64,000 bases of DNA, taken from positions 1,232-65,231 of IMG/VR virus record IMGVR_UViG_3300020161_000678; one strand, given 5' to 3'. This stretch comes from a virus (Duplodnaviria > Caudoviricetes). Shown here piece by piece: positions 1,901 through 26,452 of this stretch (the first letter of the stretch is position 1; the number at the start of each line of letters is the position of its first letter). The notes below the pieces were generated by a model. That model searched no databases and was not told where the DNA came from. It saw only the letters and a program-made list of their open reading frames with translations. A program made the position numbers and the translations under genes.

Positions 1901-3340
1901 TCAATCACGTCTTTTAATATCCATTTTCTTTCTTACTGGTTTAGACTCTTCAGGTGAATTACTTTTCAGTACGTCCCAATATCTGTTATCGTTCATTAGT
2001 ATGGCATCAACACAGAACTTACCGAATCTGTATGATTGTGATATAAGAACTGATTGCTCTCTTTCTTCATCACGCGCCTTAGCAATAAACAGTCTAGCCA
2101 GCCCAAGTTTCTGTTCAGCAGAAGTTTGGCAGTAAGCAAAAATGTTATCTGCTGTTGCCGCTTTACTGTAATCTTCTGAAAGATGCTTTACTGTAATTAC
2201 TTTTGCATCTTCAGCAAGACGATTAGTTTGAGATGCGGTAACGATTGCAATATTTCTTTCAACTGCAATTCTTCGTAACTCTTTATACACGATACCTGTA
2301 TCAATACGAATATTCGCACCACTTATTTCCATTAAGTCTGCATAGTCTAGCATAAGAAGTTCAGGAGTGTAGTTTAAATATCTTGCCATGCTATCAAGAT
2401 ACACTTCCAAACCTTTAATTGATAAGCCGTTAGTTGGAAATCTTTTTACATAGAACTTCCAACGTTCTTTAAACATTCTTATCTTTGCAGCAATTTCTTC
2501 CCTTGATTCAGAACTGTAATCAATCACTGGTCGTTCCCAGTTTTGAAAGATTACATTGCTAAATCTGTTCATCTCATCACGTTCAAAACGTGCCACCTTA
2601 CCACTGTTCTTTGAGGTACTCATCGAGAACAAGTTCTGAACATAACGTCTACACATCTTTTCTTCAGACATTTCAAGTGAAAGGTGAAGAACTTTATAAC
2701 CTAAACGAACCGCAGTAGATCCTAAATGCACCATACCGAATGTCTTGCCTCTGTTTGGTGGAGCTAGAATAACCATAAGTTCGCCTGGTGCTGGCCCAAA
2801 CTTCATGGCATCGAATGGTGCGATACCTGTTGGTATGGGATCTATTTCGTCAGATAAGAACTTTAAGCTTTTTGATGTATCAGTGAATAAAATACCAGGG
2901 TCGAAAGTGGTGATCTCATCACGTCCAGCATTAGCCAGAATTGATTGTGCGCCATCTAAGTCGCCATTCTTAATTGAGTTAGCTGCCTCAATTACAGAGG
3001 TCTTTAACTTCTGACCTTTAATGAACTTGTTTAGCTGGCTGAGAGTAAACTTCTCATTTACGCTAGTGCTGGTCTCATGCAAGGACATAACTGTTCTTGC
3101 ATAAGTCTTTTCAGTTTTTGGATCATTTAATTGTGGCTCTAACAATTCAACAATGTGTTCTTTACAAGGCGTTTTGTAAGTCTTGTAATAGTCAATAGCT
3201 TGGATAGCTACTGTCTTATACACATCGTTTTCAAACAATCCTGGATCAAGTGAGTTTACTATTATTGGAGCTGATGCTTCTGAGAAGCATAGTAATACTA
3301 AAAGATTTTCTTGTAAAAATCCATCAATTAAATCTGACAT
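1901..3340 (-). CDS. dnaB: DnaB-like replicative helicase
   Basis: GELMVILAPPNRGKT Walker A, LSLEMS, LDYADLM Walker B, ASQTNR, IAKARD. Confidence 0.88.
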   Translation of the reverse strand: MSDLIDGFLQENLLVLLCFSEASAPIIVNSLDPGLFENDVYKTVAIQAIDYYKTYKTPCKEHIVELLEPQLNDPKTEKTYARTVMSLHETSTSVNEKFTLSQLNKFIKGQKLKTSVIEAANSIKNGDLDGAQSILANAGRDEITTFDPGILFTDTSKSLKFLSDEIDPIPTGIAPFDAMKFGPAPGELMVILAPPNRGKTFGMVHLGSTAVRLGYKVLHLSLEMSEEKMCRRYVQNLFSMSTSKNSGKVARFERDEMNRFSNVIFQNWERPVIDYSSESREEIAAKIRMFKERWKFYVKRFPTNGLSIKGLEVYLDSMARYLNYTPELLMLDYADLMEISGANIRIDTGIVYKELRRIAVERNIAIVTASQTNRLAEDAKVITVKHLSEDYSKAATADNIFAYCQTSAEQKLGLARLFIAKARDEEREQSVLISQSYRFGKFCVDAILMNDNRYWDVLKSNSPEESKPVRKKMDIKRRD

Positions 3341-3345
3341 GTTTT

Positions 3346-4203
3346 CTACCTATAGAATTGAAATGCTTCCACCATCGGTGCTGTTACAGTTATACCTTTG
3401 GTTGCCAAGAACTTTGTTAGCGCAGTCTCGCTGGCATGGTGATATGGAAACAATTCTTCTTCAGAGTAGGAACAAGTCATTCCAGGATATGGTAGCGGTA
3501 GTATCTTTTCTGCCTCAGCTAAATGTTCTTTGTGCTTGACTTTTATCTGTGACAGTTTAAATGGATCAAGCATCATCTTTTTAACAGTCTTGTCACCAAT
3601 GCCTTTGATGCCAGGGAAGTTGTTATGGCTGCCTACCAGTGCTGTATAGAAATTAAAATCTTCAGCTTTAACCGGATAGTATTCTTTAGTAAACAATTCT
3701 TTAGTAAGAAGATATGTTTTACCACCCTTACGTTTGTAGACCATGAAGTTTGGATAAACAAACAATTGGTATAGGTCAGTATCATTTGACGCTACTATGA
3801 TTCTGTCAAACTTGTCTGCATACGTTTTGGTAATGTATCCAATCCAATCATCAGCTTCGTAACCTGTTTCTGACAGTATCGGAATGTTCATCATTTTAAT
3901 GAACTCTTTGCACCAACCTTTGTTGTACGAAAGAGCTTCGTAAAAACCATCAGCATCATCAGACTTCTCACGATCACCTTTATACTTAGAGTAAACTGCT
4001 TCTCTAAAGTACGGACGCTTATCGTCACAGATAATAACATGCTCTGGCTGGACGTAGTTAATCATAGAGCATAACTGAATGACGAACCCGTAGAAGCCAC
4101 CAGTCATTTGACCTCGGTGTGCCAACTCTTTATTGACAGCCATTGACCGCATAAGAGTGTTATTAAAGTCTATCAACAAAACATCATTTGAGATTGCTTT
4201 CAT
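3346..4203 (-). CDS. 5'-3' exonuclease / flap endonuclease (PolI N-terminus / T4 RNase H-like)
   Basis: LLIDFNN, YKGDR, GYEADDWIG, SNDTDLYQL, PGIKGIGDKT (HhH). Confidence 0.9.
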   Translation of the reverse strand: MKAISNDVLLIDFNNTLMRSMAVNKELAHRGQMTGGFYGFVIQLCSMINYVQPEHVIICDDKRPYFREAVYSKYKGDREKSDDADGFYEALSYNKGWCKEFIKMMNIPILSETGYEADDWIGYITKTYADKFDRIIVASNDTDLYQLFVYPNFMVYKRKGGKTYLLTKELFTKEYYPVKAEDFNFYTALVGSHNNFPGIKGIGDKTVKKMMLDPFKLSQIKVKHKEHLAEAEKILPLPYPGMTCSYSEEELFPYHHASETALTKFLATKGITVTAPMVEAFQFYR

Positions 4204-9574: not shown

Positions 9575-10681
9575 TTATTTGTTTCTGTTACGGAGATTAG
9601 CTAACCGATCCCGGTTATTAGATGCTGGCTTTGGTGGCTCTGGCTCATCTTCACCTTCTTCTTCATCAGGATCAAATGGCGGAGTGTCATCATCAGCAGG
9701 CTCAGGCTCAGCTTTGCGTAACGGCTTCCGTTCTGTTTTTGGCTCAGCCTTTGGCTCGGCTTTCTTTCTTTTTAAACCAAGCTCTTTTGCAATATCTTCA
9801 GCCAGTTCTTCAAGATCGTTAGCACCGTCAGGGTTGACGTCTAAGTTTTCTTGAGCGATCAAGTCCAACAACTCGTCTTCAGTAAAATCAAACAAGTCAT
9901 CATAAGATAAAGTTTCGACATTAATGCCTTTCTTTTTCTTTGGCTTGTCATGTTTCTCAGACTTGCTTGACTTGGCATCTGTTGAGCTGAAAGATGCTGC
10001 AATGTAGTCATAATCGAAAAAGATTAAGTTTGCCGCCAGTGACTTCTTATCACTGATTAAAGGCCAAATTTCTTCTTCAAAATCTTCAACTTCAGAAGGT
10101 CTTCTAGCCACCTTGATTTCGTACTTGGTATTAAGGTTAACACCGGAACGAATGATGTCTAAATCATAACCTTCGAATGGATCGTCAACGCCCAAAACTT
10201 CTTGAGTTTCTTCGTCAATGGCTTGCAGCATAATAGCTTTATCCAATGACGCTGGCATTGCCCATGCTTTAAGAACTGGCTTGGTGTTCTTACCACCACG
10301 TTCCAGCAGATAAACCAGGACACGTTGACTTGGTTTGAGCTTCTTTGCGTACTCTTCATCGGTGTCCAAAACGCGATTGCGTTCTTCACATATCGGACAT
10401 GGTTGACGAGTTAGACCAGTAACAGGATGAACTGTGTGGAATGGGCAAATGTAAGCATCTTTGTTCTGACCAATGCTGTAATGAACAGCAATGCGATATC
10501 CAAAGTGATCTGCACCGTCCCAACCAGGAGGCATCAGTCTGATCTTGTTGTTCCCTTCATTAGGTTTGAAGAGTTTAAGCTCGGGTGACAAGTAACCATC
10601 ACGAAGACCAGCATCAGACTCATTAGCCTGTTTCTTTGCTTCGTCGTAGGTACGTTTTTTGTATTCAAATTTCTTAGCCAT
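9575..10681 (-). CDS. Single-stranded DNA-binding protein (T4 gp32-like)
   Basis: LFKPNEGNNKIRLMPP, HY..G...YICP...CPICE Zn site, GYDLDI, acidic C-terminal tail; lies next to recA. Confidence 0.75.
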   Translation of the reverse strand: MAKKFEYKKRTYDEAKKQANESDAGLRDGYLSPELKLFKPNEGNNKIRLMPPGWDGADHFGYRIAVHYSIGQNKDAYICPFHTVHPVTGLTRQPCPICEERNRVLDTDEEYAKKLKPSQRVLVYLLERGGKNTKPVLKAWAMPASLDKAIMLQAIDEETQEVLGVDDPFEGYDLDIIRSGVNLNTKYEIKVARRPSEVEDFEEEIWPLISDKKSLAANLIFFDYDYIAASFSSTDAKSSKSEKHDKPKKKKGINVETLSYDDLFDFTEDELLDLIAQENLDVNPDGANDLEELAEDIAKELGLKRKKAEPKAEPKTERKPLRKAEPEPADDDTPPFDPDEEEGEDEPEPPKPASNNRDRLANLRNRNK

Positions 10682-13341: not shown

Positions 13342-15885
13342 TTACTTATAAAAATCAAATGACTTGTGGAGTTTCTTTGGCACTTCTATGAACTCAGTTG
13401 AGCAGAATGTATCTATCTCTTCTTGTTCGTACCAATTTCTGCCATAAGACATCTCGCATGTTAATGGGACATTAAGCCAGGGATAATCCCTGGTGTCGCA
13501 CATTAGTCTGGCAATCGTCATTACTTGTTCTTCAAGCTGATCTTCTGGAATGTACGAAACAATATCGTCATGAACCTGCATGACTGTTTGGATACCAGCG
13601 TCACAAATCTTATTCATGGCATTAACGCAAAGTCTAGCCGCTGCACCTTGAATAGGACTGTTAATTATCTCGTTATAAGATAACGGCCCATGACGTCTGA
13701 AACCCATTAGTGTTTCAACATAACCATGCTCTTTATAGAAGTCCACTAACCACTGTTGCCACTTCTTAATACCTGCGAACACATACCAGAACTCTTCATT
13801 CATTTCTAGCATGATCTCTTTTGGTATCTTCATTGCAGGAGCGATGCTATAAATCGAGCTGCCATAGAACTGAGGAAACGTCCATTGGTTTTTAACATCA
13901 CCACGAAACTTCTTCATGACTTTAGGATCATCAAGAAATTGTTCACCACCAATACGAGCTGGATATGCTTCGGCTATTCGCTTCGCCCAGTCCATATGCA
14001 CATCGTAGTTTTCCCAGACCATTTTACAGTAAGTAGGATCTTGAGTAGCCACCGCTATCAACCTACCTTCAATCTGACCATAGTCCGAACAAACCATGTA
14101 ATGCCCTTCAGGTGCCTTAATAACTTTACGAATGTCTTTGCCTTTACGGTTAGGGAAATTCTGTAAGTTAGGATCAGAACATGAAAGCCTGTTGGTGCTG
14201 GCAAACAGATGGTTGAATGAAGCGTGAATTCTTCCATCAACTGTGTCTGAGTGCTTGAAGATTGGATCAATATATGTTCCTTTCTTCTTAGCAACAGCTC
14301 TGTTTTTCAGCAGCAATGCACCGATGGGATGTTCGATTTTAGATAGCACAGACTCATCAGATGACTCTTTACCATCAACCTTAACCTCATCAGTTAGACC
14401 ACAAATGTTTTTCAAGAACACCAGCACTTGAGATGGAGAATCAATATTGAAATTACCATAGCGAGATTCATACGTCTTAACATCACGCATTGATTTTATC
14501 TCATGCAAAATTTCTTTCAATTCAGCATCGTATTTGTTAAAATACTCTAAAGTGACTTCTTTATCAGGTTCCACACCATTGATTTGAGTTCTTGCTAAAG
14601 TAGAACTTGATCTTATTAAATCAAGATATACGTTTTCTAGTCCCAGTTCCTCGATGATTGCCTTTTGCTTTTTAAACAATAAGTCTGTCCACTTAACGTC
14701 TAAAGTGTTATAAGGCAATATCTCATCGAAAGTGTACTTCTCAAGATCAGATCTATCCAAGTTTGAAATAGCCTTCAGGTTAAAACCAAAGTATTGACGA
14801 ACCAAGAAATCCAAGTTATGAGTTCTCATCAATTCGTTAATAACGTATGCCTGAGCCTGTGAGCAATTCCACTTCCGCCAATCAACCAGTACATCAGGAC
14901 CAAAGAACACACCAGTCCACTCTTGCTCAAATTTGGCGTTATGGCATACAAACTCTTTTACATTTAGGAAAAATGTATGCAAGCGTTCTACCAAACGTTT
15001 CTTCTGAGAAGCTGACCACCATTCACCTTTATATTGAAAAGGAAATGCTATGGTGTAATCATATGTTCCGAACGATAAGGAAAGCAGTCTGCTATCACTA
15101 CGGTATGGACTCAGTTGATTGGTTTCAATATCATACGATACCAAATCAAGTGTCTCAAAATAGTCAAGCCATTTGAAGATTTTTTCAAGATTTTCTTCAG
15201 TAGGCTCTTTAGTCCATTCAGTGTTAGCTATCCTGTCCGCTTTGGTTGGAATCCAAGGCACTGTTGAAAGTTTGAACTTCTCAAGACTTTTGACATGCTC
15301 AAGAAAATAACCATCCCACTCAGTTTCAAACACCTTTTCTTTCTTAACACGTTGTTTAGACATTATGAAAGAAGGGCTGTGCATTGGATATAACCAACAA
15401 GTATGACCACCAATCTTTACTGGAATAAATTTACCAGCATAGTTGCGCTCAGATGATTCGTTTAATACCCAATTAATGGCCTCGCTGCCAACTGCCACAA
15501 TAACCTTTGGCTTGGTCTTGGCAATGTCTGCCTCAACCCGTATCCTGCAACAAGTATATTCAAGTTCTGTAACCGACTTCCTTGAGAAGCAGTTTAAGAC
15601 TGAATTGAATCTTGATCTGTCAAGTGTGTCCTCTCTAAATTTGGACAACATGTATTCCATTTCGTCGCCTTCAAAGTATGAAGATGCATCGTCTTGGTCT
15701 GATGTTGCTCTTGGTAACAGGAAGTAGTAGTCAGGATTATCCACACCTTCAGGAGTCATTTTAGGAGTTGCAACATCTGCCCTATTTAAAGGACAGATCT
15801 TACAACCTAAAAGCTTTGCTGAGTGAAGTGGGAGCTTTGACGAGACTACGGGAACTGCTTCTGAATCTCTAAAGAAAAAGCTCAT
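13342..15885 (-). CDS. polA: Family A DNA polymerase with N-terminal UDG-like domain and 3'-5' exonuclease
   Basis: N-terminus CKICPL...CCR...KPKVIVAVG...HSPSF (family-4 UDG-like); exo YDIET and HNAKFE; pol RLSCSDPNLQNFP, DYGQIEGR, YGS, QVHDDI. Confidence 0.92.
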   Translation of the reverse strand: MSFFFRDSEAVPVVSSKLPLHSAKLLGCKICPLNRADVATPKMTPEGVDNPDYYFLLPRATSDQDDASSYFEGDEMEYMLSKFREDTLDRSRFNSVLNCFSRKSVTELEYTCCRIRVEADIAKTKPKVIVAVGSEAINWVLNESSERNYAGKFIPVKIGGHTCWLYPMHSPSFIMSKQRVKKEKVFETEWDGYFLEHVKSLEKFKLSTVPWIPTKADRIANTEWTKEPTEENLEKIFKWLDYFETLDLVSYDIETNQLSPYRSDSRLLSLSFGTYDYTIAFPFQYKGEWWSASQKKRLVERLHTFFLNVKEFVCHNAKFEQEWTGVFFGPDVLVDWRKWNCSQAQAYVINELMRTHNLDFLVRQYFGFNLKAISNLDRSDLEKYTFDEILPYNTLDVKWTDLLFKKQKAIIEELGLENVYLDLIRSSSTLARTQINGVEPDKEVTLEYFNKYDAELKEILHEIKSMRDVKTYESRYGNFNIDSPSQVLVFLKNICGLTDEVKVDGKESSDESVLSKIEHPIGALLLKNRAVAKKKGTYIDPIFKHSDTVDGRIHASFNHLFASTNRLSCSDPNLQNFPNRKGKDIRKVIKAPEGHYMVCSDYGQIEGRLIAVATQDPTYCKMVWENYDVHMDWAKRIAEAYPARIGGEQFLDDPKVMKKFRGDVKNQWTFPQFYGSSIYSIAPAMKIPKEIMLEMNEEFWYVFAGIKKWQQWLVDFYKEHGYVETLMGFRRHGPLSYNEIINSPIQGAAARLCVNAMNKICDAGIQTVMQVHDDIVSYIPEDQLEEQVMTIARLMCDTRDYPWLNVPLTCEMSYGRNWYEQEEIDTFCSTEFIEVPKKLHKSFDFYK

Positions 15886-15891
15886 TATTAA

Positions 15892-16998
15892 TTACCCACT
15901 AATATCTACAGCACCAATAACGTGAAGAAAATTTCCATTGCAACCGCTTAACGCAATGAATCTTTTATCTTTGCTGAACCCAAAGGCAATGTGGCTCATG
16001 GTAGTCAGTACCCGTTTAATCAATTCAGGATTGATTTTAAGATCACCAGTAGGAACAGCCGAGTCCATTTCAATTGAGTCATCGCTGATTCCAGACTTAG
16101 TCGTAGTATCAACCACCAAGTTCTTTCCTCTGCTTTGGAACACTGTGATTTCACGCTCATCCGGTGTGACCAGGATACACGCTCTGTCAATGATGTTTGA
16201 TAACTCATCAGGAATTTCATACCAAGATGCAATCATCTGCTCATACATCTCAGTGGTGCCTTTGTAGTTAGATTTTCTTTCTAACTCAATGAGCCTGGTG
16301 AACACTGTCACATCTGTATCCACTTCAGCAACCAAGAATGAATTATCTTCTTCTTGCGATACCAGGATGCGAATAAAGTTTGATTCTTCAATTTCAGATG
16401 ACTTGGTTTTAGTCAGACGAATCAACTGCTCACAGAACGCACTTGGAATAATCAAGTCGATTGAACATTCTGGCACGTTTGGAGAGTCGTAGCTATACCG
16501 ACTCAAGGAGTATTCGTCCATTGAGTAGAATTCTAAGTGTCTGTCTTTTATAATCAATCTGACACCGTTTCTTTCAGGGTTTGAAAGATCGTGAGACGTA
16601 CTGATTAAACAGTTAGACATACCACTGATAACGTCAAGCGGAATGTTTATTGCTTCGCATTTTGAAAGATCAGGCATTGAGAAAATGAAATCTTCTTTAG
16701 GAAGTGACGGAAGCTTGATTACCGATCTGCCACACTTAAAATTAACTTCATCTGGTTTTTGAATAATCTCGACATCCTTTCTTGGAAGTGATGCCAACAT
16801 CTTCACCAGTAATGTGCCTGGTAATGCACATTCCAAGCCGCTTTCAAACTTGTATTCTATAGCCTGCATATCGTTATACGCCACGACCTTACCGTCACCA
16901 AAACAGAAGTGAGTTAAGATTGGAGCAAACGATTTCTGCATTAAGAAAGGGGTACACTTGCCTACCACACTTTCTATGATGGTCTTATTTATTGTCAT
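15892..16998 (-). CDS. dnaN: DNA polymerase III beta-like sliding clamp
   Basis: 368 aa, PILTHF, LPGTLL..MLASLP, KCGRS.IKLPSLPKEDF, clamp-like three-domain length. Confidence 0.75.
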   Translation of the reverse strand: MTINKTIIESVVGKCTPFLMQKSFAPILTHFCFGDGKVVAYNDMQAIEYKFESGLECALPGTLLVKMLASLPRKDVEIIQKPDEVNFKCGRSVIKLPSLPKEDFIFSMPDLSKCEAINIPLDVISGMSNCLISTSHDLSNPERNGVRLIIKDRHLEFYSMDEYSLSRYSYDSPNVPECSIDLIIPSAFCEQLIRLTKTKSSEIEESNFIRILVSQEEDNSFLVAEVDTDVTVFTRLIELERKSNYKGTTEMYEQMIASWYEIPDELSNIIDRACILVTPDEREITVFQSRGKNLVVDTTTKSGISDDSIEMDSAVPTGDLKINPELIKRVLTTMSHIAFGFSKDKRFIALSGCNGNFLHVIGAVDISG

Positions 16999-18616
16999 GT
17001 AAAGTCTCCGTCATGCTTATTTGCACCTTATAATTGCCGGAACTCAATTGATTTCTTATGGCTTGGAAAGCTGCTTTATGGCAGTCCTCTAAAGTCATAG
17101 TCTTTGGCAATGTTAATTCAAAATCCAACAATTCGATTGTTGGCGTAATTGTTACAGATACAATCTGACTTACATCAGATGCACTGATAACATTGAGATA
17201 CTCATTCAAATCCTCTTCTGTTTCACAAAGATCTGATACCTCAATTTCTTTAGGAAGCTCAACCACTTTTGTGACTTCTTCAACCAGTGCTTCTACTGGA
17301 GGTTGCGGTACACCCATTGGTCGAGGCTTGATAGCGAACTTCTTGCGCTCTAATATTTTACCTACGTCGAATCCCATTTGTCTTTTAGGAGCCTCTTCTC
17401 GGTTTTGTTTAAACTCAACCTCATTCAAGACCGAACTGTTAAGTTCTTCAAGACTGAGGTCTTCTAAGTGTGGTTTATCAGCCAACGAAACTTCATACCT
17501 GCGTCTGGAATCAAGTGTAACCGATATGATTGCTTTACGATGTTCTTCCATAGCATCCATATGTTCCAGATCAAGTAAACCTCTGTTGAAATATTCTTTA
17601 ATAGCCAGGTTTGAGTTTGCATAGGCATCGTACCAGTAGCTCAATAAGAACTTTAGGTCGTTTTCTCGCTTTAAAATGCGATCAACAATCCGTAAAGTAT
17701 TTGGAACAGTGTTGGTGGACGATGCTGCTGTACCTGCGAGATATAAGTTTCCACCATGACCAAAATCGAATGTTCTTTCATAATGTTTCTTTAACTCTTT
17801 TTCAGCATTAATGAAGAACATTGCATTGATGTAATCTCTTTCGTAGTAGCCAGGATTGCCTTCAGCTTGCGCCAAGGTTGCATCAGCTTCAATGGACTGA
17901 AGATAATCTTCCAGCATCCTAATGTCAATGCTTGTCAGCTTGAGTAGGTGTGAAGCGTCTGAGTATCTACCCATAGTCATGGGTACTGCTCTGACCTTTT
18001 GTGGGAAGTAGTTATATCCGGTAACTAGATTGTTTTTAACAATGAAGTCAGGAACTTGAATATGACCTAACCGTGATCCAAATGACCATGTACTGGCATC
18101 ACATGAATAGAATGGATACATTCGCAGCCCTTCTAAAGCATTGGCAGCGAATCCGTGAACTTTTACTCTTGGTGAACCATCAGGGCGTTGAACGTACTCC
18201 TTGAACACTTTTTTGATCCAAGGTTTGAACGCCTCAATATCTTTCCCTTTGTTGATGATACCGACCCCAAAGTAATCATAGTTATCTACAATTTTAGATA
18301 ACCATGAAAAGTCTTCTCCTAAGTGAAATGCTGGGATAGGATGAAGTCCATTTGACTCCATGTACTTCAAAATATCCCAGGTGTACTTAGCATGTCCGAT
18401 AACATCCAAGGTGACATAGAATTCAAAAGAAGGTCCCATCTCATGCAAATAACCGATGTACCGATCCAAAAAGCTTTTAAACAATCTTGATCGTACTACC
18501 CTGAAATCTACACCCTCAGATCCTCTGAAGTTGTTGTTACCTTCTTCCTTAAGAAATTTGTTGTACCAGCTATGCGCTCCTGAATCTAGCGATAACCAAA
18601 ATGACTTACCTTCCAT
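16985..18616 (-). CDS. TGT/DpdA-like guanine transglycosylase-fold protein with C-terminal extension
   Basis: LDSGAHS, YVTLDVIG, PIPAFHLGED, KVHGFA, YPFYSCDASTW; FolE and QueD-like genes nearby. Confidence 0.7.
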   Translation of the reverse strand: MEGKSFWLSLDSGAHSWYNKFLKEEGNNNFRGSEGVDFRVVRSRLFKSFLDRYIGYLHEMGPSFEFYVTLDVIGHAKYTWDILKYMESNGLHPIPAFHLGEDFSWLSKIVDNYDYFGVGIINKGKDIEAFKPWIKKVFKEYVQRPDGSPRVKVHGFAANALEGLRMYPFYSCDASTWSFGSRLGHIQVPDFIVKNNLVTGYNYFPQKVRAVPMTMGRYSDASHLLKLTSIDIRMLEDYLQSIEADATLAQAEGNPGYYERDYINAMFFINAEKELKKHYERTFDFGHGGNLYLAGTAASSTNTVPNTLRIVDRILKRENDLKFLLSYWYDAYANSNLAIKEYFNRGLLDLEHMDAMEEHRKAIISVTLDSRRRYEVSLADKPHLEDLSLEELNSSVLNEVEFKQNREEAPKRQMGFDVGKILERKKFAIKPRPMGVPQPPVEALVEEVTKVVELPKEIEVSDLCETEEDLNEYLNVISASDVSQIVSVTITPTIELLDFELTLPKTMTLEDCHKAAFQAIRNQLSSGNYKVQISMTETLHDNK

Positions 18617-18632
18617 ACCACCTCTTATAATG

Positions 18633-19106
18633 TTATTCTTGCCTAATTGGTACGTCGAGTCTGTTTGAATGGAAAGCGGCTATTGCTGCCAACTTACCAT
18701 GAGCCTCGTCACGTTTCCGTACCTCCGCATCTGTTAGCAACTTTACCTCAGTGTTAACCAGAATGTTTGCTGCCTTTTTCATTTCTTTGGCAAAAGATGA
18801 TTTTAAGTTATCCATAGCAAAGTTAGTTTGCTCTGTAGGCTTAATGATCTGATAGCCAACTCCTCTAACAGATCGTAAGCACTTCTTGTACTCAGTAAGC
18901 ATAGCCCATCTGAATCCCTCCATGTTTTGGAGGAACTCAAAATTGAACTTTTCAAACTCTTTCTTAGTACAAACTTCTGGTTCAACTAATGCAAAGTTCT
19001 TATAGAGCCATTCTTTTGAAATGGTTTCGCCATAATCAAACAAACGATTGGCTCTATAAGCGGCAGAAATGAAGATCTTTTCGAGATCACCTTCTACCTT
19101 GTCCAT
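18633..19106 (-). CDS. Putative winged-helix protein, partner of the Cas7-like gene
   Basis: FDYGETISKEWL...LRSVRGVGYQII wing-like motif followed by a helical C-terminus; starts 1 nt after the Cas7-like stop. Confidence 0.55.
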   Translation of the reverse strand: MDKVEGDLEKIFISAAYRANRLFDYGETISKEWLYKNFALVEPEVCTKKEFEKFNFEFLQNMEGFRWAMLTEYKKCLRSVRGVGYQIIKPTEQTNFAMDNLKSSFAKEMKKAANILVNTEVKLLTDAEVRKRDEAHGKLAAIAAFHSNRLDVPIRQE

Positions 19107-19107
19107 G

Positions 19108-19713
19108 TTAGCTCTCGTCTTTTATACGCATTGATTTAAAGCTTTCGACCTTGAAGCGTCCGAACATGCCACCCTTTTCAGGTCTGAAGCCGCCCAAGCC
19201 AACATACTTACCTGCGTCAACAGCAGATTTAATAAGTTGGGCTTCGTCAATGACTTTCTCATCCCAAATACAGTTAACTGTCAAGCTCCAAGGGTTGAAC
19301 TTGGGACGGTATGCCATAACTCTTGACTTACCGATAACCACACTTCTGCAATCGTAGTATTTACCTTCCCACAATTCATCCTTGGTTAATTTTGCACCGT
19401 ACTCTAATGGTACGAAATCGTCAAGGCAAAGCAGACCACGTTTCAAGTGCATGCCTAGCTTGCTAAGTTTTCCGCCGTTGATGATAGTGGCACGGATGTT
19501 TTGAGTTGGAATGATTACTCCAGCTTCGTCATCCCAGTACAAAGAGCCTTCCCACTGACCTCTGGCAATAGCCAAATGATCTTCGTAGGTTTTCTTTTGT
19601 TTATTGGTGAGAACTTTCTGTCTTACTGCATCTTTGTCAATTGGGTTCGCCAATCGGTCGCATGAGAGTAAAATAGGTGAACTGCCTTTGATGTTTAAGG
19701 TTGTTTGGTACAT
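19108..19713 (-). CDS. Stand-alone Cas7/RAMP-like protein (Vipr-like)
   Basis: N-terminal strand TLNIKGSSPILL, IIPTQNIRATI (RAMP IP..x.IKG-like), RPKFNPWSLTV, C-terminal glycine-rich loop AGKYVGLGGFRPEKGGMFGRFKV. Start moved to MYQTT (GGAG RBS). Confidence 0.75.
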   Translation of the reverse strand: MYQTTLNIKGSSPILLSCDRLANPIDKDAVRQKVLTNKQKKTYEDHLAIARGQWEGSLYWDDEAGVIIPTQNIRATIINGGKLSKLGMHLKRGLLCLDDFVPLEYGAKLTKDELWEGKYYDCRSVVIGKSRVMAYRPKFNPWSLTVNCIWDEKVIDEAQLIKSAVDAGKYVGLGGFRPEKGGMFGRFKVESFKSMRIKDES

Positions 19714-19728
19714 GACTTTCTCCAATTT

Positions 19729-19786: not shown

Positions 19787-21090
19787 AACAATCACTGGAA
19801 ACATGTTTTCAACAAACATGAATCCGCTGATTACTTAATCAACTCTTTACATTACCTTGCTTCGCACCACTCGACATGGACTTGCTTAAATCCGCTGCAT
19901 CTTACAAGACTAAACACAACTTCACACACCTTATAGTGATTTTAAACAATCACTGGAAACATATCTTATCAAGATATGAATCCGCTGATTACTAAATCAA
20001 CTCTTTGCAATACAGCACATCGCAAGGCCGTTCTGTGCTCTACATTACTTCACAACAATCACTGGAAACATATCTTTGGTAAGATATGAATCCGCTGATT
20101 ACTTAATCAACTCTTTACTGTACTCTTACATTAAGCTACTAAGCACAACTTAGCCTAACAGTGCATTACTCAACACCGCTATCAATGTGTGATTATTATA
20201 TAAAAATTCACTATCAAATAACAGATCAAAACTGTTAAATAATTAAATGATTTAAGAATAATCACTGGAAGCATATCTTTGTTAAAATATGAATCCGCTG
20301 ATTACTTAATCAACTCTTTGCACTACTGATCTTTACATCGCTTTACTTCACATTACAAAACTTGGATATACTCTGATCCGCCTCGTTCTAAAACAACCAC
20401 TGGAAACATATTTTTGTTAAAATATGAATCCGCTGATTACTCAATCAACTCTTTACAATACAATTCTCCACCATACTTCATCAGACTTCACATCACTTGA
20501 CATAGCAGCACTGGATATTTTAAACAACCACTGGATTTGGCATCTCTTACGATTACCAAGTCCGCTGATTACTCAATCAACTCTTTGCAGGACAGTACAT
20601 CGCATCACTGAACTCAACTGGACGCTACTTTCGCAGAACAATCGCACTACATTGCTGGGATCTATTTCCCTAAAGTGATCTAAAACAATCACTGGAAACA
20701 TGTTTTCAACAAACATGAATCCGCTGATTACTTACTCAGCTCTTTGCGCTACATTGCAATACAGAAATTCGGAAAGCGGAACCTGGCATGACACTACTAG
20801 GAATCAGTAGGCATTGCTGCGAGTCAGTGATCTTAAATAATCACTGGAAACATATCTTATCAAGATATGAATCCGCTGATTACTTAATCAGCTCTTTACA
20901 ATACATAACATCTCTTCACAGAACCAGACTCTGCATCGCTGCACCTGACTCGGCTAAACATTACTATCTAGTGATTCTAAAACAATCACTGGAAACATGT
21001 TTTCAGCAAACATGAATCCGCTGATTACTAAATCAACTCTTTACTGTACTAAGCATTACTACGCTCCACGATACTCAAGTAAGCTTCATT
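19787..21090 (-). repeat. Nine-unit non-coding array: 62-64 nt conserved repeat alternating with 5-nt-periodic tracts (putative guide RNAs)
   Basis: Repeats at 19787-19848, 19945-20006, 20054-20116, 20257-20319, 20392-20454, 20523-20586, 20684-20745, 20836-20897 and 20981-21042. Consensus AAYAAYCACTGGA-hairpin-RTCCGCTGATTACTHAMTCARCTCTTT. Each is followed on the plus strand by about 9-16 RCHNN pentamers. Confidence 0.95.
20195..20226 (-). promoter_or_regulatory. Internal array promoter (ATCTG-N21-TATAAT) driving units 3 to 1
   Basis: Matches the genome-wide fixed-spacing motif. Confidence 0.7.
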
Positions 21091-21103
21091 AAAATAAAAA
21101 CAT

Positions 21104-21135
21104 ATTATATAAAAAACCACTTCAAGTTAACAGAT
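21104..21135 (-). promoter_or_regulatory. Array leader promoter (ATCTG-N21-TATAAT) driving units 9 to 4
   Basis: Matches the genome-wide fixed-spacing motif; lies just upstream of the first pentamer tract. Confidence 0.7.
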
Positions 21136-21157
21136 TCAAACTTAACTTGTTGATTTA

Positions 21158-22066
21158 CTATACCTTATTGCGTCTAACAATGTTATTAAAAATTGATTGA
21201 TGCAGTAAGGCTGGTGATCTTGTAGTACACTTAGCACACATGTCTGGCAAACAACCTGACAAATGTTGCGCTCTAAATTCTTTAACAGCTTTTGAATTGT
21301 TCCAAATCTCTTCCAACGAAGATTCATTTAGATTTCCAAAAATTACTTCTTTTCCAAATGCCATACAGCATGGCACAACATCTCCATCTGAATGAACCGA
21401 CACACTTAACCAAGGATTCAAACATAACTCTTTTGAAGCTTCAACCCTTTGTTGAGTGTAAAGATTAGTTGAACTGTCCTTGATTATTCGTACCTCACAA
21501 TCCCATTTCAAATCATCAACTATTTCTTGCAGTTCCGCTGCTTCTTCCTTGGCATTGTTTTTGACAACTTCGTTATCCATATCAATAACTTGTAAGTCAA
21601 TTTGTACCTTGGATTTACGTTCGGTTTTAGCTTGCATAAGCAGGCTGATGTTATGCTCTAGCTCGACGAATGTTCCGTTAACTCTGATCTTTTCATAGTT
21701 GCGAACTGAGTCAACAGATATGGTTAAATAGTCTAACTCAAGGAGTAAGTCGATATGCTTATGAATCAGCAGACCGTTTGTACTCATGCCAGTTATAACT
21801 TTACCCAAGAATGGTTCAACAATTTTGGATAATTTTTTATTTAACAATGGTTCGCCTGACATCTGGAACTCGATGAAGTATGATCCATCTAAGTCTCTCT
21901 CAGCAATTGTCCTGGCGAGGTCAACACTTAACGCAAAATCATCCCTATGTTTCTCCTCAACAAATCGAGGGCACATAGGGCACTTTAATTGACAGGCAGA
22001 GTGTGCTTCAATTTGGTAAATTGACGGCACTCTCGGGTTGAATATTGGCCCTTCTAAAACTTTCAT
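21158..22066 (-). CDS. Radical SAM / SPASM-domain protein
   Basis: SACQLKCPMC (CxxxCxxC), SGEPLL, STNG; C-terminal CLNPW...GDVVPCC..FGNLNESSLEEIWN..CAKC. Start moved to MKVLEG (GAGG RBS). Confidence 0.85.
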   Translation of the reverse strand: MKVLEGPIFNPRVPSIYQIEAHSACQLKCPMCPRFVEEKHRDDFALSVDLARTIAERDLDGSYFIEFQMSGEPLLNKKLSKIVEPFLGKVITGMSTNGLLIHKHIDLLLELDYLTISVDSVRNYEKIRVNGTFVELEHNISLLMQAKTERKSKVQIDLQVIDMDNEVVKNNAKEEAAELQEIVDDLKWDCEVRIIKDSSTNLYTQQRVEASKELCLNPWLSVSVHSDGDVVPCCMAFGKEVIFGNLNESSLEEIWNNSKAVKEFRAQHLSGCLPDMCAKCTTRSPALLHQSIFNNIVRRNKV

Positions 22067-22195
22067 AAACACCTCGAATTTAAGCGGTTTTAAGCGGCTA
22101 TTTTTCAAGCCGCTATGATGGTATTACTTAAACAATGAAACGGCTTAAACAGCCAGATTCTTGCCAATTATCGCTAGGTTTAGCACTGGCTTTAG

Positions 22196-24723: not shown

Positions 24724-25875
24724 TTACTCGTCTTCGTCTATGTGAAAAGATGACAATGATTTACCAATCATTGTCTGTAATGATGCCTTGCATCTGGCAT
24801 CCAGCATCTCAGCATTTGCCTTAGCTAATGAGTAATGCTGATCTAGTTCAAACAATTCAATCCGTTTAATCAATTCTAAAGCTTCAAACACTCTGCTTCT
24901 TCTTGCCGAATCCAAACTGGCTAAACTAACATGATACCTGAAAGCATCGAATATTGTTTCTTTGTATGAAAGAGCGTCAGGAACTATAGGAATACAGCCA
25001 GCAAAAACCGATTCTACCATTGAAATGCCGAACGTTTCTTGATACGCAAATGAGATGCTATACTTGCATTTCTTCAGCAACTCATAGTATTCTTTCTTTG
25101 TTTTGCAAAGCTCATGAGTGACCTTTACTTCCAAAGGAAGCTTATGTGTGACTATTGCATCTTTCAGTATTTCAAGTTCTTTCATACCTTTTTCATTTGA
25201 AAGCCGGTGCGGAAATGCTATCCAGTTTTCTTTTGAATGAACTTCTTGCTCAGTGGCTCTTAAACTGTAAGGCCAGTCTTTGATGCAGTCATCTTCATAA
25301 AACGGCAAGAACGTTACAGACACCTTGTTTGCCAATGTTTCTATGATTTTTACAGAACCAACTTTGTTGGCATAATCAAAGATAAGCTTCTTATGAAAGT
25401 TTGTGGCAACAAAAATGTTGTCTGCAATGAACATCCAACCAAGCTGGAATTCTTTAGCCCACAAACCCATGCCGCTGGTGTACGTCAGATCATGTTCGTC
25501 CCATGTACCGGCATGAAAAATTCCATTGATCTGAATTTTCATACCTTCCATCATGTTCTCAACATAACGAAGTTTCTCGATACCAGGAAACCACAAGTCA
25601 TGAAAGAAAAGACTGAAGTTTCGTTCACCATCTTCATACTCATCCCTGATGCGAGCCAGGATTCTAGCCATTTGAGTAGACTTGTAAATGTTGGTAGCAA
25701 ACGGATCTAAAAACAAATTAGATTTAATAGTTGATGAAGGCGGAGTGTCACCTAAGATAGTATGAAAGCGTATGGAATCTGAAGCAATTTTAGATAACTC
25801 ATGTTCAGACCATTTAAGCCATTGAACTGAGTATCTATTTTCAATCGGTTCTATTGGAACGTTTATAATTAACAT
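24724..25875 (-). CDS. GT-B (GT4-like) glycosyltransferase
   Basis: FPHRLSNEKG, YQETFGISMVESVFAGCIPIVPD.LSYKE. Confidence 0.75.
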   Translation of the reverse strand: MLIINVPIEPIENRYSVQWLKWSEHELSKIASDSIRFHTILGDTPPSSTIKSNLFLDPFATNIYKSTQMARILARIRDEYEDGERNFSLFFHDLWFPGIEKLRYVENMMEGMKIQINGIFHAGTWDEHDLTYTSGMGLWAKEFQLGWMFIADNIFVATNFHKKLIFDYANKVGSVKIIETLANKVSVTFLPFYEDDCIKDWPYSLRATEQEVHSKENWIAFPHRLSNEKGMKELEILKDAIVTHKLPLEVKVTHELCKTKKEYYELLKKCKYSISFAYQETFGISMVESVFAGCIPIVPDALSYKETIFDAFRYHVSLASLDSARRSRVFEALELIKRIELFELDQHYSLAKANAEMLDARCKASLQTMIGKSLSSFHIDEDE

Positions 25876-25885
25876 ACAACCTCAC

Positions 25886-26452
25886 TTAAAGAGATCTAAA
25901 GAATTCTGCCTTACTGGTCTCATTCTCAAAACAACCTGTAAAAGCATTGGTTACAACACAGCTATCAGTCGCCCTAACACCGCGCATCTGCATACACATA
26001 TGCTCACCAGATACTTTTACGATGCAACCCTTTGGCTGCAAATACTTTTCAAATATCTGGACTATATCTGTGGTCAACTGTTCTTGAAGTGCTGGTCTGG
26101 CAGCTAACAATTGTATGACTCTTGGAACCTTACTCAAACCAATAACTCTGTTAGACGGAATGTATGCGAAGCTTATCTCATACCTGACGGGTAAGAAGTG
26201 ATGAGGACACATACTCCATGCTGTCACATTCTTTGTGACAATCATCTCGTTATAGTTTGCCGGAAAGTGCTTGCTGAATATACCTTGGAGTTCTTCATCG
26301 GAATCAGCATTGAGACCTCTGAATATTTCGGCATATGATTTTGCGAATCTTGCTGGGGTTTCTTTGAAGTTAGCGTCCTCAGTATCAACACCCAGTGCTT
26401 GTAGGATGTTTGAGAAACTATGTTCAATGATCTTTTTGTTTTCTTCTTGCAT
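25886..26452 (-). CDS. folE: GTP cyclohydrolase I
   Basis: ETPARFAK, SMCPHHFLP, IGLSKVPR, LQEQLT, GEHMCMQMRGV. Confidence 0.95.
   Translation of the reverse strand: MQEENKKIIEHSFSNILQALGVDTEDANFKETPARFAKSYAEIFRGLNADSDEELQGIFSKHFPANYNEMIVTKNVTAWSMCPHHFLPVRYEISFAYIPSNRVIGLSKVPRVIQLLAARPALQEQLTTDIVQIFEKYLQPKGCIVKVSGEHMCMQMRGVRATDSCVVTNAFTGCFENETSKAEFFRSL

Follow-up and report, generated by a model that had tools for sequence, protein, structure and literature searches.

What a series of tandem units encodes, when their variable parts keep a rhythm of five bases, is the question raised by a locus of an uncultured freshwater phage (Duplodnaviria; Caudoviricetes). The locus lies in a DNA stretch of 64,000 nucleotides (nt), here called the window, which spans positions 1,232 to 65,231 of the 65-kb IMG/VR record IMGVR_UViG_3300020161_000678, a phage record with an estimated completeness of 44%. 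The genes of the record are on the minus strand, and nine tandem units, in each of which a block of about 59 nt is conserved and a tract of 44–100 nt is variable, are located between a radical-SAM gene and an open reading frame (ORF) of 205 amino acids (aa). The original prediction, made from the letters alone, held that the variable tracts are written in pentamers in which a constant triplet is gripped by a protein, one subunit per pentamer, and the two remaining bases (NN) spell a gapped target, perhaps codon positions 1 and 2. The analysis described here assigns the locus, with a probability of about 0.9, to the systems called VIPR (Viral Interference Programmable Repeat) as a guide-RNA array nearest to type II; the assignment is due to the homologues of the Vipr and Vap1 proteins, the runs of 9–16 pentamers, the conserved 3′ tail, and the absence of a self-target.

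The Five-Base Rhythm of the Variable Tracts

On the plus strand a purine followed by C (R-C) recurs every 5 nt in all nine tracts, which in the minus-strand RNA corresponds to [D-G-Y-N-N]n, where D is any base except C and Y is a pyrimidine. Successive [AG]C dinucleotides are exactly 5 nt apart in 55% of cases in the tracts versus 8.5% in the rest of the window, and AC-AC pairs peak at lags 5, 10, and 15 (32, 30, and 25, against 0–7 elsewhere). The period-5 Fourier power exceeds that of mononucleotide shuffles in eight of the nine tracts (z 2.0–5.5); tract 6 (20587–20680) fails the test because its phase changes. On both the spacing and the shuffles, the five-base rhythm is real.

The finer claims of the original prediction were largely reproduced. 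Pentamers starting with AC or GC, recounted in tracts 4, 5, and 8, are 10/13, 10/12, and 13/14, that is, the 33 of 39 first given, and the NN list proposed for tract 4 (GA GG AG AU CA UU AA GA AA GA AA UC AG) is the parse of the guide here named v6. The third plus-strand base, described as never G, is indeed never G in these three tracts (29 A/T, 4 C, 0 G), but the rule does not extend to the whole array, since C occupies the corresponding RNA position in 3 of 94 pentamers. The breaks of phase announced in tracts 3 and 6 are both present, and tract 7 breaks phase too.

All composition counts refer to the 94 in-phase pentamers of the tracts, in RNA sense; the in-phase runs comprise 9, 14, 9, 12, 13, 11, 10, and 16 pentamers. 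Position 1 is A in 44, U in 37, G in 10, and C in 3 (A or U in 81), position 2 is G in 86, and position 3 is a pyrimidine in 90. The last two positions, claimed to vary freely, use all four bases (N4: A 38, C 12, G 25, U 19; N5: A 43, C 14, G 19, U 18). Of 85 triplets, 65 are WGY, W being A or U, and only 6 GGY, a composition other than the canonical GGY (YNNGG repeat); AGY and UGY are mixed within every guide.

Homology with the VIPR Systems

VIPR systems are CRISPR-like phage weapons described in three bioRxiv preprints (10.64898/2026.04.26.720920, 10.64898/2026.04.26.720927, and 10.64898/2026.10.15.759431). According to these 2026 preprints, each comprises Vipr, a RAMP protein of about 20 kDa that stands alone, together with an accessory vap gene (in type II vap1, whose product is a predicted DNA binder) and the vrRNAs, in which 9–16 G-G-Y-N-N pentamers are followed by an invariable structured tail. 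Each pentamer is bound by one Vipr protomer, which sequesters GGY, and the NN pairs base-pair with double-stranded DNA (dsDNA), every third target base, usually the codon wobble position, being skipped. In nature they are directed against satellites, prophages, and VIPR systems other than themselves, and self-targeting is absent in the published controls. The ribonucleoprotein of phage SUSP1 can be programmed via NN alone; this phage silences a satellite recombinase, and the satellite's "solo" vrRNAs are redirecting decoys (10.64898/2026.10.15.759431).

The 205-aa ORF directly downstream of the array (19108–19725, minus strand; its length refers to a TTG start, whereas the ATG at 19713 would give 201 aa) aligns through residues 9–197 with residues 5–191 of the SUSP1 Vipr protein (PDB 36pp_D, E 9.1e-28), leads by tblastn to the vipr gene of phage SUSP1, and is by homology a RAMP/Cas7-like guide-binding protein. 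The next ORF, of 157 aa (18633–19106, minus strand; phrog_5926), corresponds in BLASTP to the SUSP1 gene after vipr, namely vap1 (26% identity, E 1e-13), and is considered a vap1-like accessory gene.

The resemblance to the type II system of SUSP1 concerns both the proteins (34% identity for Vipr, 26% for vap1) and the layout: in both phages the vrRNAs are co-oriented with the genes and intergenic beside vipr, 9–16 pentamers of a constant triplet plus NN precede a conserved structured tail, the locus is downstream of a DNA ligase gene, and self-targeting is absent. The two differ in the arrangement of the guides, one upstream and three downstream in SUSP1 and nine in a single upstream array with a putative internal second promoter here, as well as in their setting, an Escherichia phage in one case and, in the other, a freshwater habitat and a 7-deazaguanine-type DNA-modification gene set around the locus. 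The Pseudomonas VIPRs of the P. fulva prophage type, among them that of phage LESphi2, the closest named relative (45% identity), share the protein family and the gene order. The gripped triplet, the single subunit per pentamer, the gapped NN target, and the wobble skip of the original prediction are the mechanism published for the homologous SUSP1 system; the proposal was therefore right yet not new, because the 2026 preprints had already established it. That mechanism is left unchanged by the present findings, which explain an apparently mysterious code, bring a large uncultured phage from fresh water into the VIPR arms race that was newly described, and add to the preprints the loss of a guanine pocket with matching guides, a candidate class of AlpA targets, and a visible turnover of guides.

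Class 1 CRISPR systems (types I and III) have a Cas7 backbone with the same RAMP fold, one subunit per guide repeat, and a thumb that flips bases periodically. In contrast, their period is 6 (five bases paired, one flipped), their guide is contiguous, and they rely on Cas1-Cas2 spacer acquisition and cas operons, none of which was found here. The repeated unit of the array is a structured tail of about 59 nt, its "spacers" are 5-nt periodic, and no cas domains are present in the neighbouring ORFs. The array has no match in GenBank phages by blastn or in Rfam at a permissive threshold, a 16-mer of the tail retrieves only chance singletons in IMG/VR, and a search for related loci in IMG/VR based on Vipr found none.

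A repeated triplet is also the ligand of the trp RNA-binding attenuation protein (TRAP), in which one subunit binds each of 11 triplets separated by spacers of 2–3 nt. TRAP is an unrelated protein, whose triplets are GAG/UAG and which has no DNA targeting. A TRAP-like wrapping of the RNA and a sponge for Rho, Hfq, or CsrA had been among the candidates and were dropped after the adjacent ORF matched Vipr (PDB 36pp).

Architecture of the Array and Its Conserved Tail

The array is probably made of two transcription units, read from two copies of a phage promoter. A promoter-like 40-nt element with the terminal sequence TATATAATA stands once before units 1–6 and a second time before units 7–9, always on the minus strand. 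Copy 1 (21103–21142; direct repeat D5), which ends on the RNA strand with TTTTTATATAATA and is conserved in a sister phage (L036), lies upstream of v1–v6, and copy 2 (20194–20233) splits the array; the promoter function of this direct repeat is putative.

The nine vrRNA units are all on the minus strand. Unit v1 (20984–21088) has a guide of 10 pentamers (21039–21088) and its tail at 20984–21042, and v2 (20839–20963) a guide of 14 clean Y-N-N-D-G pentamers (20894–20963, tract 8 of the original prediction) and its tail at 20839–20897. In v3 (20687–20838) the guide region (20742–20838, tail 20687–20745) is degenerate with phase breaks, and in v4 (20526–20686) a guide region at 20583–20686, with an in-phase run at 20583–20627, is followed by the tail at 20526–20586. 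Unit v5 (20395–20515; guide of 13 pentamers at 20451–20515, tail 20395–20454) is the one with a candidate alpA target, and v6 (20260–20385; guide of 14 pentamers at 20316–20385, tail 20260–20319) is tract 4 of the original prediction. Beyond the second promoter-like copy, v7 (20057–20185) has a guide region at about 20113–20185 with a phase shift near its tail (20057–20116), v8 (19948–20057) a guide of 11 pentamers (20003–20057, tail 19948–20006), and v9 (19790–19924) a guide of 16 pentamers (19845–19924, tail 19790–19848).

The tail of about 59 nt is conserved in nine of nine units, and RNAalifold predicts two hairpins in it. Their pairing is kept across U-G to C-G changes and four double (compensatory) changes on the minus strand only, which therefore fixes the RNA sense; in v4 the second hairpin is divergent yet still paired. 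This pairing bears on the possibility of a DNA-level element, which would be bound in its dsDNA form and serve as iterons, as an origin, or as a partition site, the 5-bp rhythm reflecting the spacing of proteins on DNA. The position of the array among replication genes (ligase, clamp, and polymerase), with a ParB gene about 5 kb away, would suit such an element; however, the covariation, with its U-G pairs, holds for a single strand, an RNA-guided system already known has this architecture and has Vipr and vap1 genes beside it, and iterons would not be hypervariable between phages that are 98% identical, so that a DNA-level role is hardly credible.

Along the tails (19790–21042) and the 3′ flank, TGATT, AATCA, TGATT, and AATCA follow one another in series, and alternative pairings or a pseudoknot are therefore possible beyond the two RNAalifold hairpins. 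A third hairpin (AGTGATT...AATCACT) occurs after some units only.

The five-base rhythm, the homologues of Vipr and vap1, the build of the units and the strand on which they lie, and the rapid turnover of guides were observed here, and a mechanism can be proposed around them. The nine vrRNA genes would be transcribed from the minus strand, and each pentamer would be bound by one Vipr protomer, as is expected from the homologous SUSP1 complex of solved structure, forming a filament. Vipr would keep the triplet flipped out in its grip and offer the NN pair for recognition, and the concatenated NN pairs would pair with dsDNA, one base being skipped after every two; with the paired bases in register with codon positions 1 and 2, synonymous changes would give no escape. 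Binding may then silence the transcription of rival mobile elements, aided by the vap1-like protein.

Turnover of the Guides

The sister phage L036 (an ENA contig from another sample; array at 2848–4000) has a vipr gene 98% identical to that of the window and seven units versus nine. Its guides are in part near-identical to those of the window, in part partly rewritten, and in part replaced: the v5 guide is 97% identical, the v1 guide is partly replaced, v2, v8, and v9 have no counterpart in L036, and two L036 units have no counterpart in the window. In the shared guides, N4 and N5 together diverge by 14.5%, versus 3.6% for the neutral proxy, taken from codon position 3 in four flanking genes (p 6.5e-7); the values for the triplet are 11.3% at position 1 (p 0.007), 4.8% at G2, and 9.7% at Y3. 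The public runs that contain the array are lake or freshwater metagenomes, and the subsets of units differ between runs; the contigs obtained from four lake runs consist only of short unitigs broken at the repeats, with no variant letters. These data are direct evidence of a cassette-like turnover of guides between 98% identical phages and between lake samples.

The First Base of the Triplet and Its Protein Pocket

In SUSP1, H17 and D177 are the residues that read the first G of the triplet (G1), and the D177A substitution abolishes silencing (structural preprint, 2026 bioRxiv); R138, W178, and R179 hold G2 and Y3, and K33 contacts the skipped base (2026 bioRxiv preprints). In the solved complex of P. 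fulva, G1 is read by H17 and D175. The Vipr of the window has S and G at the positions of H17 and D177, with the loss of both G1-reading residues, and retains R138, R179, and K33, as well as an aromatic residue at W178, replaced by F. The guides follow the protein: G-G-Y goes with H17/D177 in SUSP1 and W-G-Y with S/G here, and LESphi2, in which H and D are kept, has strict GGC/GGT guides (G at position 1 in 34 of 35), unlike the window.

To this comparison 43 metagenomic Vipr homologues were added, for several of which the DNA was fetched, and residues and bases could be compared at 14 loci. At the six loci with H17 and D/E177, G occupies position 1 in 64–100% of the pentamers, whereas at the eight loci with S/A/V17 and G177 it does so in 0–12% and is replaced by A or U. 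Among these eight, position 1 is A (100% in two systems), U (the sole A17 locus), or, as in the window, a mixture of A and U. In the Vipr tree all 24 proteins with G177 (S/A/V + G) fall on one side of a branch with support 100/97, and the sampled guides of this clade are AGY, UGY, or WGY. It is mechanistically coherent that a clade devoid of the guanine pocket is also devoid of guanine in its guides. As a natural experiment on the triplet pocket, this clade suggests which protein positions set the scaffold letters, an indication useful for the design of orthogonal Vipr/guide pairs.

Alternative "YNNNG" vrRNA repeats are mentioned in the Methods of one preprint (10.64898/2026.04.26.720920), and the guides of the window, parsed as Y-N-N-D-G, fit that published category. 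The main texts consulted give no sequence, clade, or residue explanation of these repeats, and neither AGY nor YNNNG is used as a term in the structural paper or in the October one (10.64898/2026.10.15.759431).

With the loss of both G1-reading residues, position 1 (A/U/G) could have joined recognition, perhaps pairing with or sensing the skipped base, in a denser code of contiguous N4 N5 D1 triplets with only G-Y flipped out. It varies within every guide and diverges between the sister phages as much as N4 and more than the neutral proxy, in agreement with such a code. On the other hand, position 1 is identical to the skipped base at 2 of 10 sites in the sole candidate target, the alpA gene described below, as often as chance would give; in the clade's sister systems it is A in 45/45, 23/23, and 58/64 pentamers, as expected for a scaffold and not for a code; the near exclusion of C (3/94) resembles the preference of a pocket; and the replacement of guide segments in blocks explains part of the raised divergence. 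The denser code is thus distinctly improbable, and position 1 is read as a relaxed scaffold position because of the chance match in the alpA site, the fixed A of the sister systems, and the near exclusion of C. There is a small chance that in this clade position 1 has been freed from the protein and has become, in the window, a working letter that senses the skipped wobble base (a 3-of-5 code, or tunable stringency) or, more modestly, that these guides are the first natural evidence that G-Y alone registers the Vipr filament.

Candidate Targets of the Guides

For the target searches, the guides were converted to NN-x-NN patterns, public collections were scanned for exact cores, and the remaining guide letters were scored for each match. 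In the 65-kb record no self-target with at least 80% NN match is present at any skip from 0 to 3, and the best self-matches at skip 1 (15/20, 18/28, 14/18, 17/26, 19/28, 17/22, and 22/32) are all within the range of shuffled guides. This absence of self-targets agrees with the published controls.

The v5 guide gave 8 matches in IMG/VR with a core of 8 pairs (best 19/24) and, with 10 pairs at one-base spacing, a single contig in the JGI metagenomes (L214, site at 9577–9612; 21/24 overall). The site falls within an AlpA-family ORF of 66 aa (PF05930, E 9e-12), on the helix-turn-helix segment P-I-S-R-S-S-W-Y-A-G, and all its skipped bases are at codon position 3. The ORF lies between a ParB-like gene and a P4-type primase; AlpA homologues share the same motif, v5 scores 20/24 and 19/24 against their genes, and one homologous alpA belongs to an integrase-alpA-PrimPol island. 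The number of matches carries no weight, because chance predicts one, and the weight rests on the location. On these grounds it is slightly favoured that v5 is aimed at the alpA gene of a P4-like or PICI-like (phage-inducible chromosomal island) satellite. The candidate target, a gene for regulation or excision in a satellite-like island, with the skips at wobble positions, would resemble those of SUSP1, whose published silencing of a satellite recombinase parallels the v5-alpA pair; the candidate class would be that of AlpA-type activators/excisionases of integrase-alpA-primase islands. As for the one-base-skip rule of the original prediction, it is expected in this phage from the SUSP1 homology, and the v5-alpA match, 21/24 with the skips at codon position 3, is the one direct indication of it.

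In GTDB genomes v5 has 0 matches with 10 pairs; the same search with 9 pairs, used as a chance control, gave 20 matches versus about 17 expected, and at these sites the opposite-strand reading is AlpA-like in 0 of 20 cases and contains a stop codon in that frame in 18 of 20. Contigs L214 and L325 have no match above shuffles for any other guide of the window phage or of its sister. Five of the 20 control matches (L216, L217, L222, L232, and L234), from metagenome-assembled genomes of Caldilineaceae, are in one conserved protein segment, ITAYQEELDMGAL, an example of how a conserved peptide inflates pattern matches.

A second indication comes from a sister system with a 57% identical Vipr and AGC guides. 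One of its guides (L038:3912–3966) matches the vipr genes of rivals (L047:3271–3300 and L039) at 18/20 and 17/20, in codon phase, versus 14/20 for its own vipr, and spells codon positions 1 and 2 of a segment, (K/Q)-R-G-T-I/M-I/M-L-D/E-D, that is conserved in Vipr. Like guides reported in the preprints for the SUSP1 family, it is an anti-VIPR guide, and its matches support the operation of the same one-base-skip rule in this clade.

The RNAs might also be a scaffold only, bound by Vipr or by another multimeric RNA-binding protein in the TRAP manner as structural or decoy RNA, with NN pairs devoid of targeting information. Eight of the nine guides are without an identified target, TRAP-type proteins likewise bind a triplet plus a 2-nt spacer, and the solo vrRNAs of the SUSP1 satellite do act as decoys. 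This explanation is nevertheless very unlikely, since the turnover of N4 and N5, and not that of G2, is about four times that of the neighbouring wobble positions, the exchange between near-identical phages, and between lake samples, concerns entire guides, the homologous SUSP1 ribonucleoprotein is programmable by NN alone, and the v5-alpA match is in codon phase.

Several points weigh against the assignment of the array to a VIPR system with the published targeting rule. Transcription, processing, and RNA ends in this phage are deduced from the DNA, and of the public runs containing the array none is listed as an RNA dataset. The sequence of the tail is unrelated to that of SUSP1, and a pseudoknot of the SUSP1 type is not demonstrated in it. 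The correlation between pocket residues and G1 maps to a single branch of the Vipr tree; since one change suffices to explain the tree, it counts as a single evolutionary event and not as covariation that recurred. A candidate target is available for one guide of nine, v5, and its single JGI match is what chance predicts for 20 fixed bases; the two v5 pairs beyond the searched core match at 1 of 4 letters; and the alpA elements have a guanine-cytosine content of 50–57% versus 39% for the phage, for which reason they can at most be related to the true target. The other gap sizes (0, 2, and 3) were covered in the phage's own genome and in the fetched loci.

The core scans of v1, v2, v6, v8, and v9 in IMG/VR, which also count against the assignment, gave nothing beyond chance. 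With 8 pairs, v2 has 40 matches, about half of which are one conserved sequence from a single sample (best 20/28); with 7 pairs, the best for v8 is 18/20 among the matches listed; and for v1, v6, and v9, with 8 pairs each, the best is the v6 match of 23/26 in L252/L236. The latter concerns two related IMG/VR contigs, L252 (minus strand, offset 2333) and L236 (4074–4112), which score 23/26 and 22/26, respectively; the site falls where a small ORF meets an open frame of 458 codons and is not clearly wobble-phased. With an estimated corrected p of about 0.13, this match was treated as due to chance, a weak candidate only.

Genes Surrounding the Locus

The 7-deazaguanine-type DNA-modification gene set around the VIPR locus (window positions 16985–18616, 21158–22108, 24724–25875, and 25886–26452) includes a queuine tRNA-ribosyltransferase/DpdA-like protein (phrog_887), a radical-SAM/SPASM protein, a GT1-family glycosyltransferase, and a GTP cyclohydrolase. 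In the DNA polymerase, which is of family A (13342–15885), an N-terminal domain belongs to the uracil-DNA-glycosylase superfamily (Pfam), and its closest named relatives, in Edwardsiella and Vibrio phages, are only about 31% identical.

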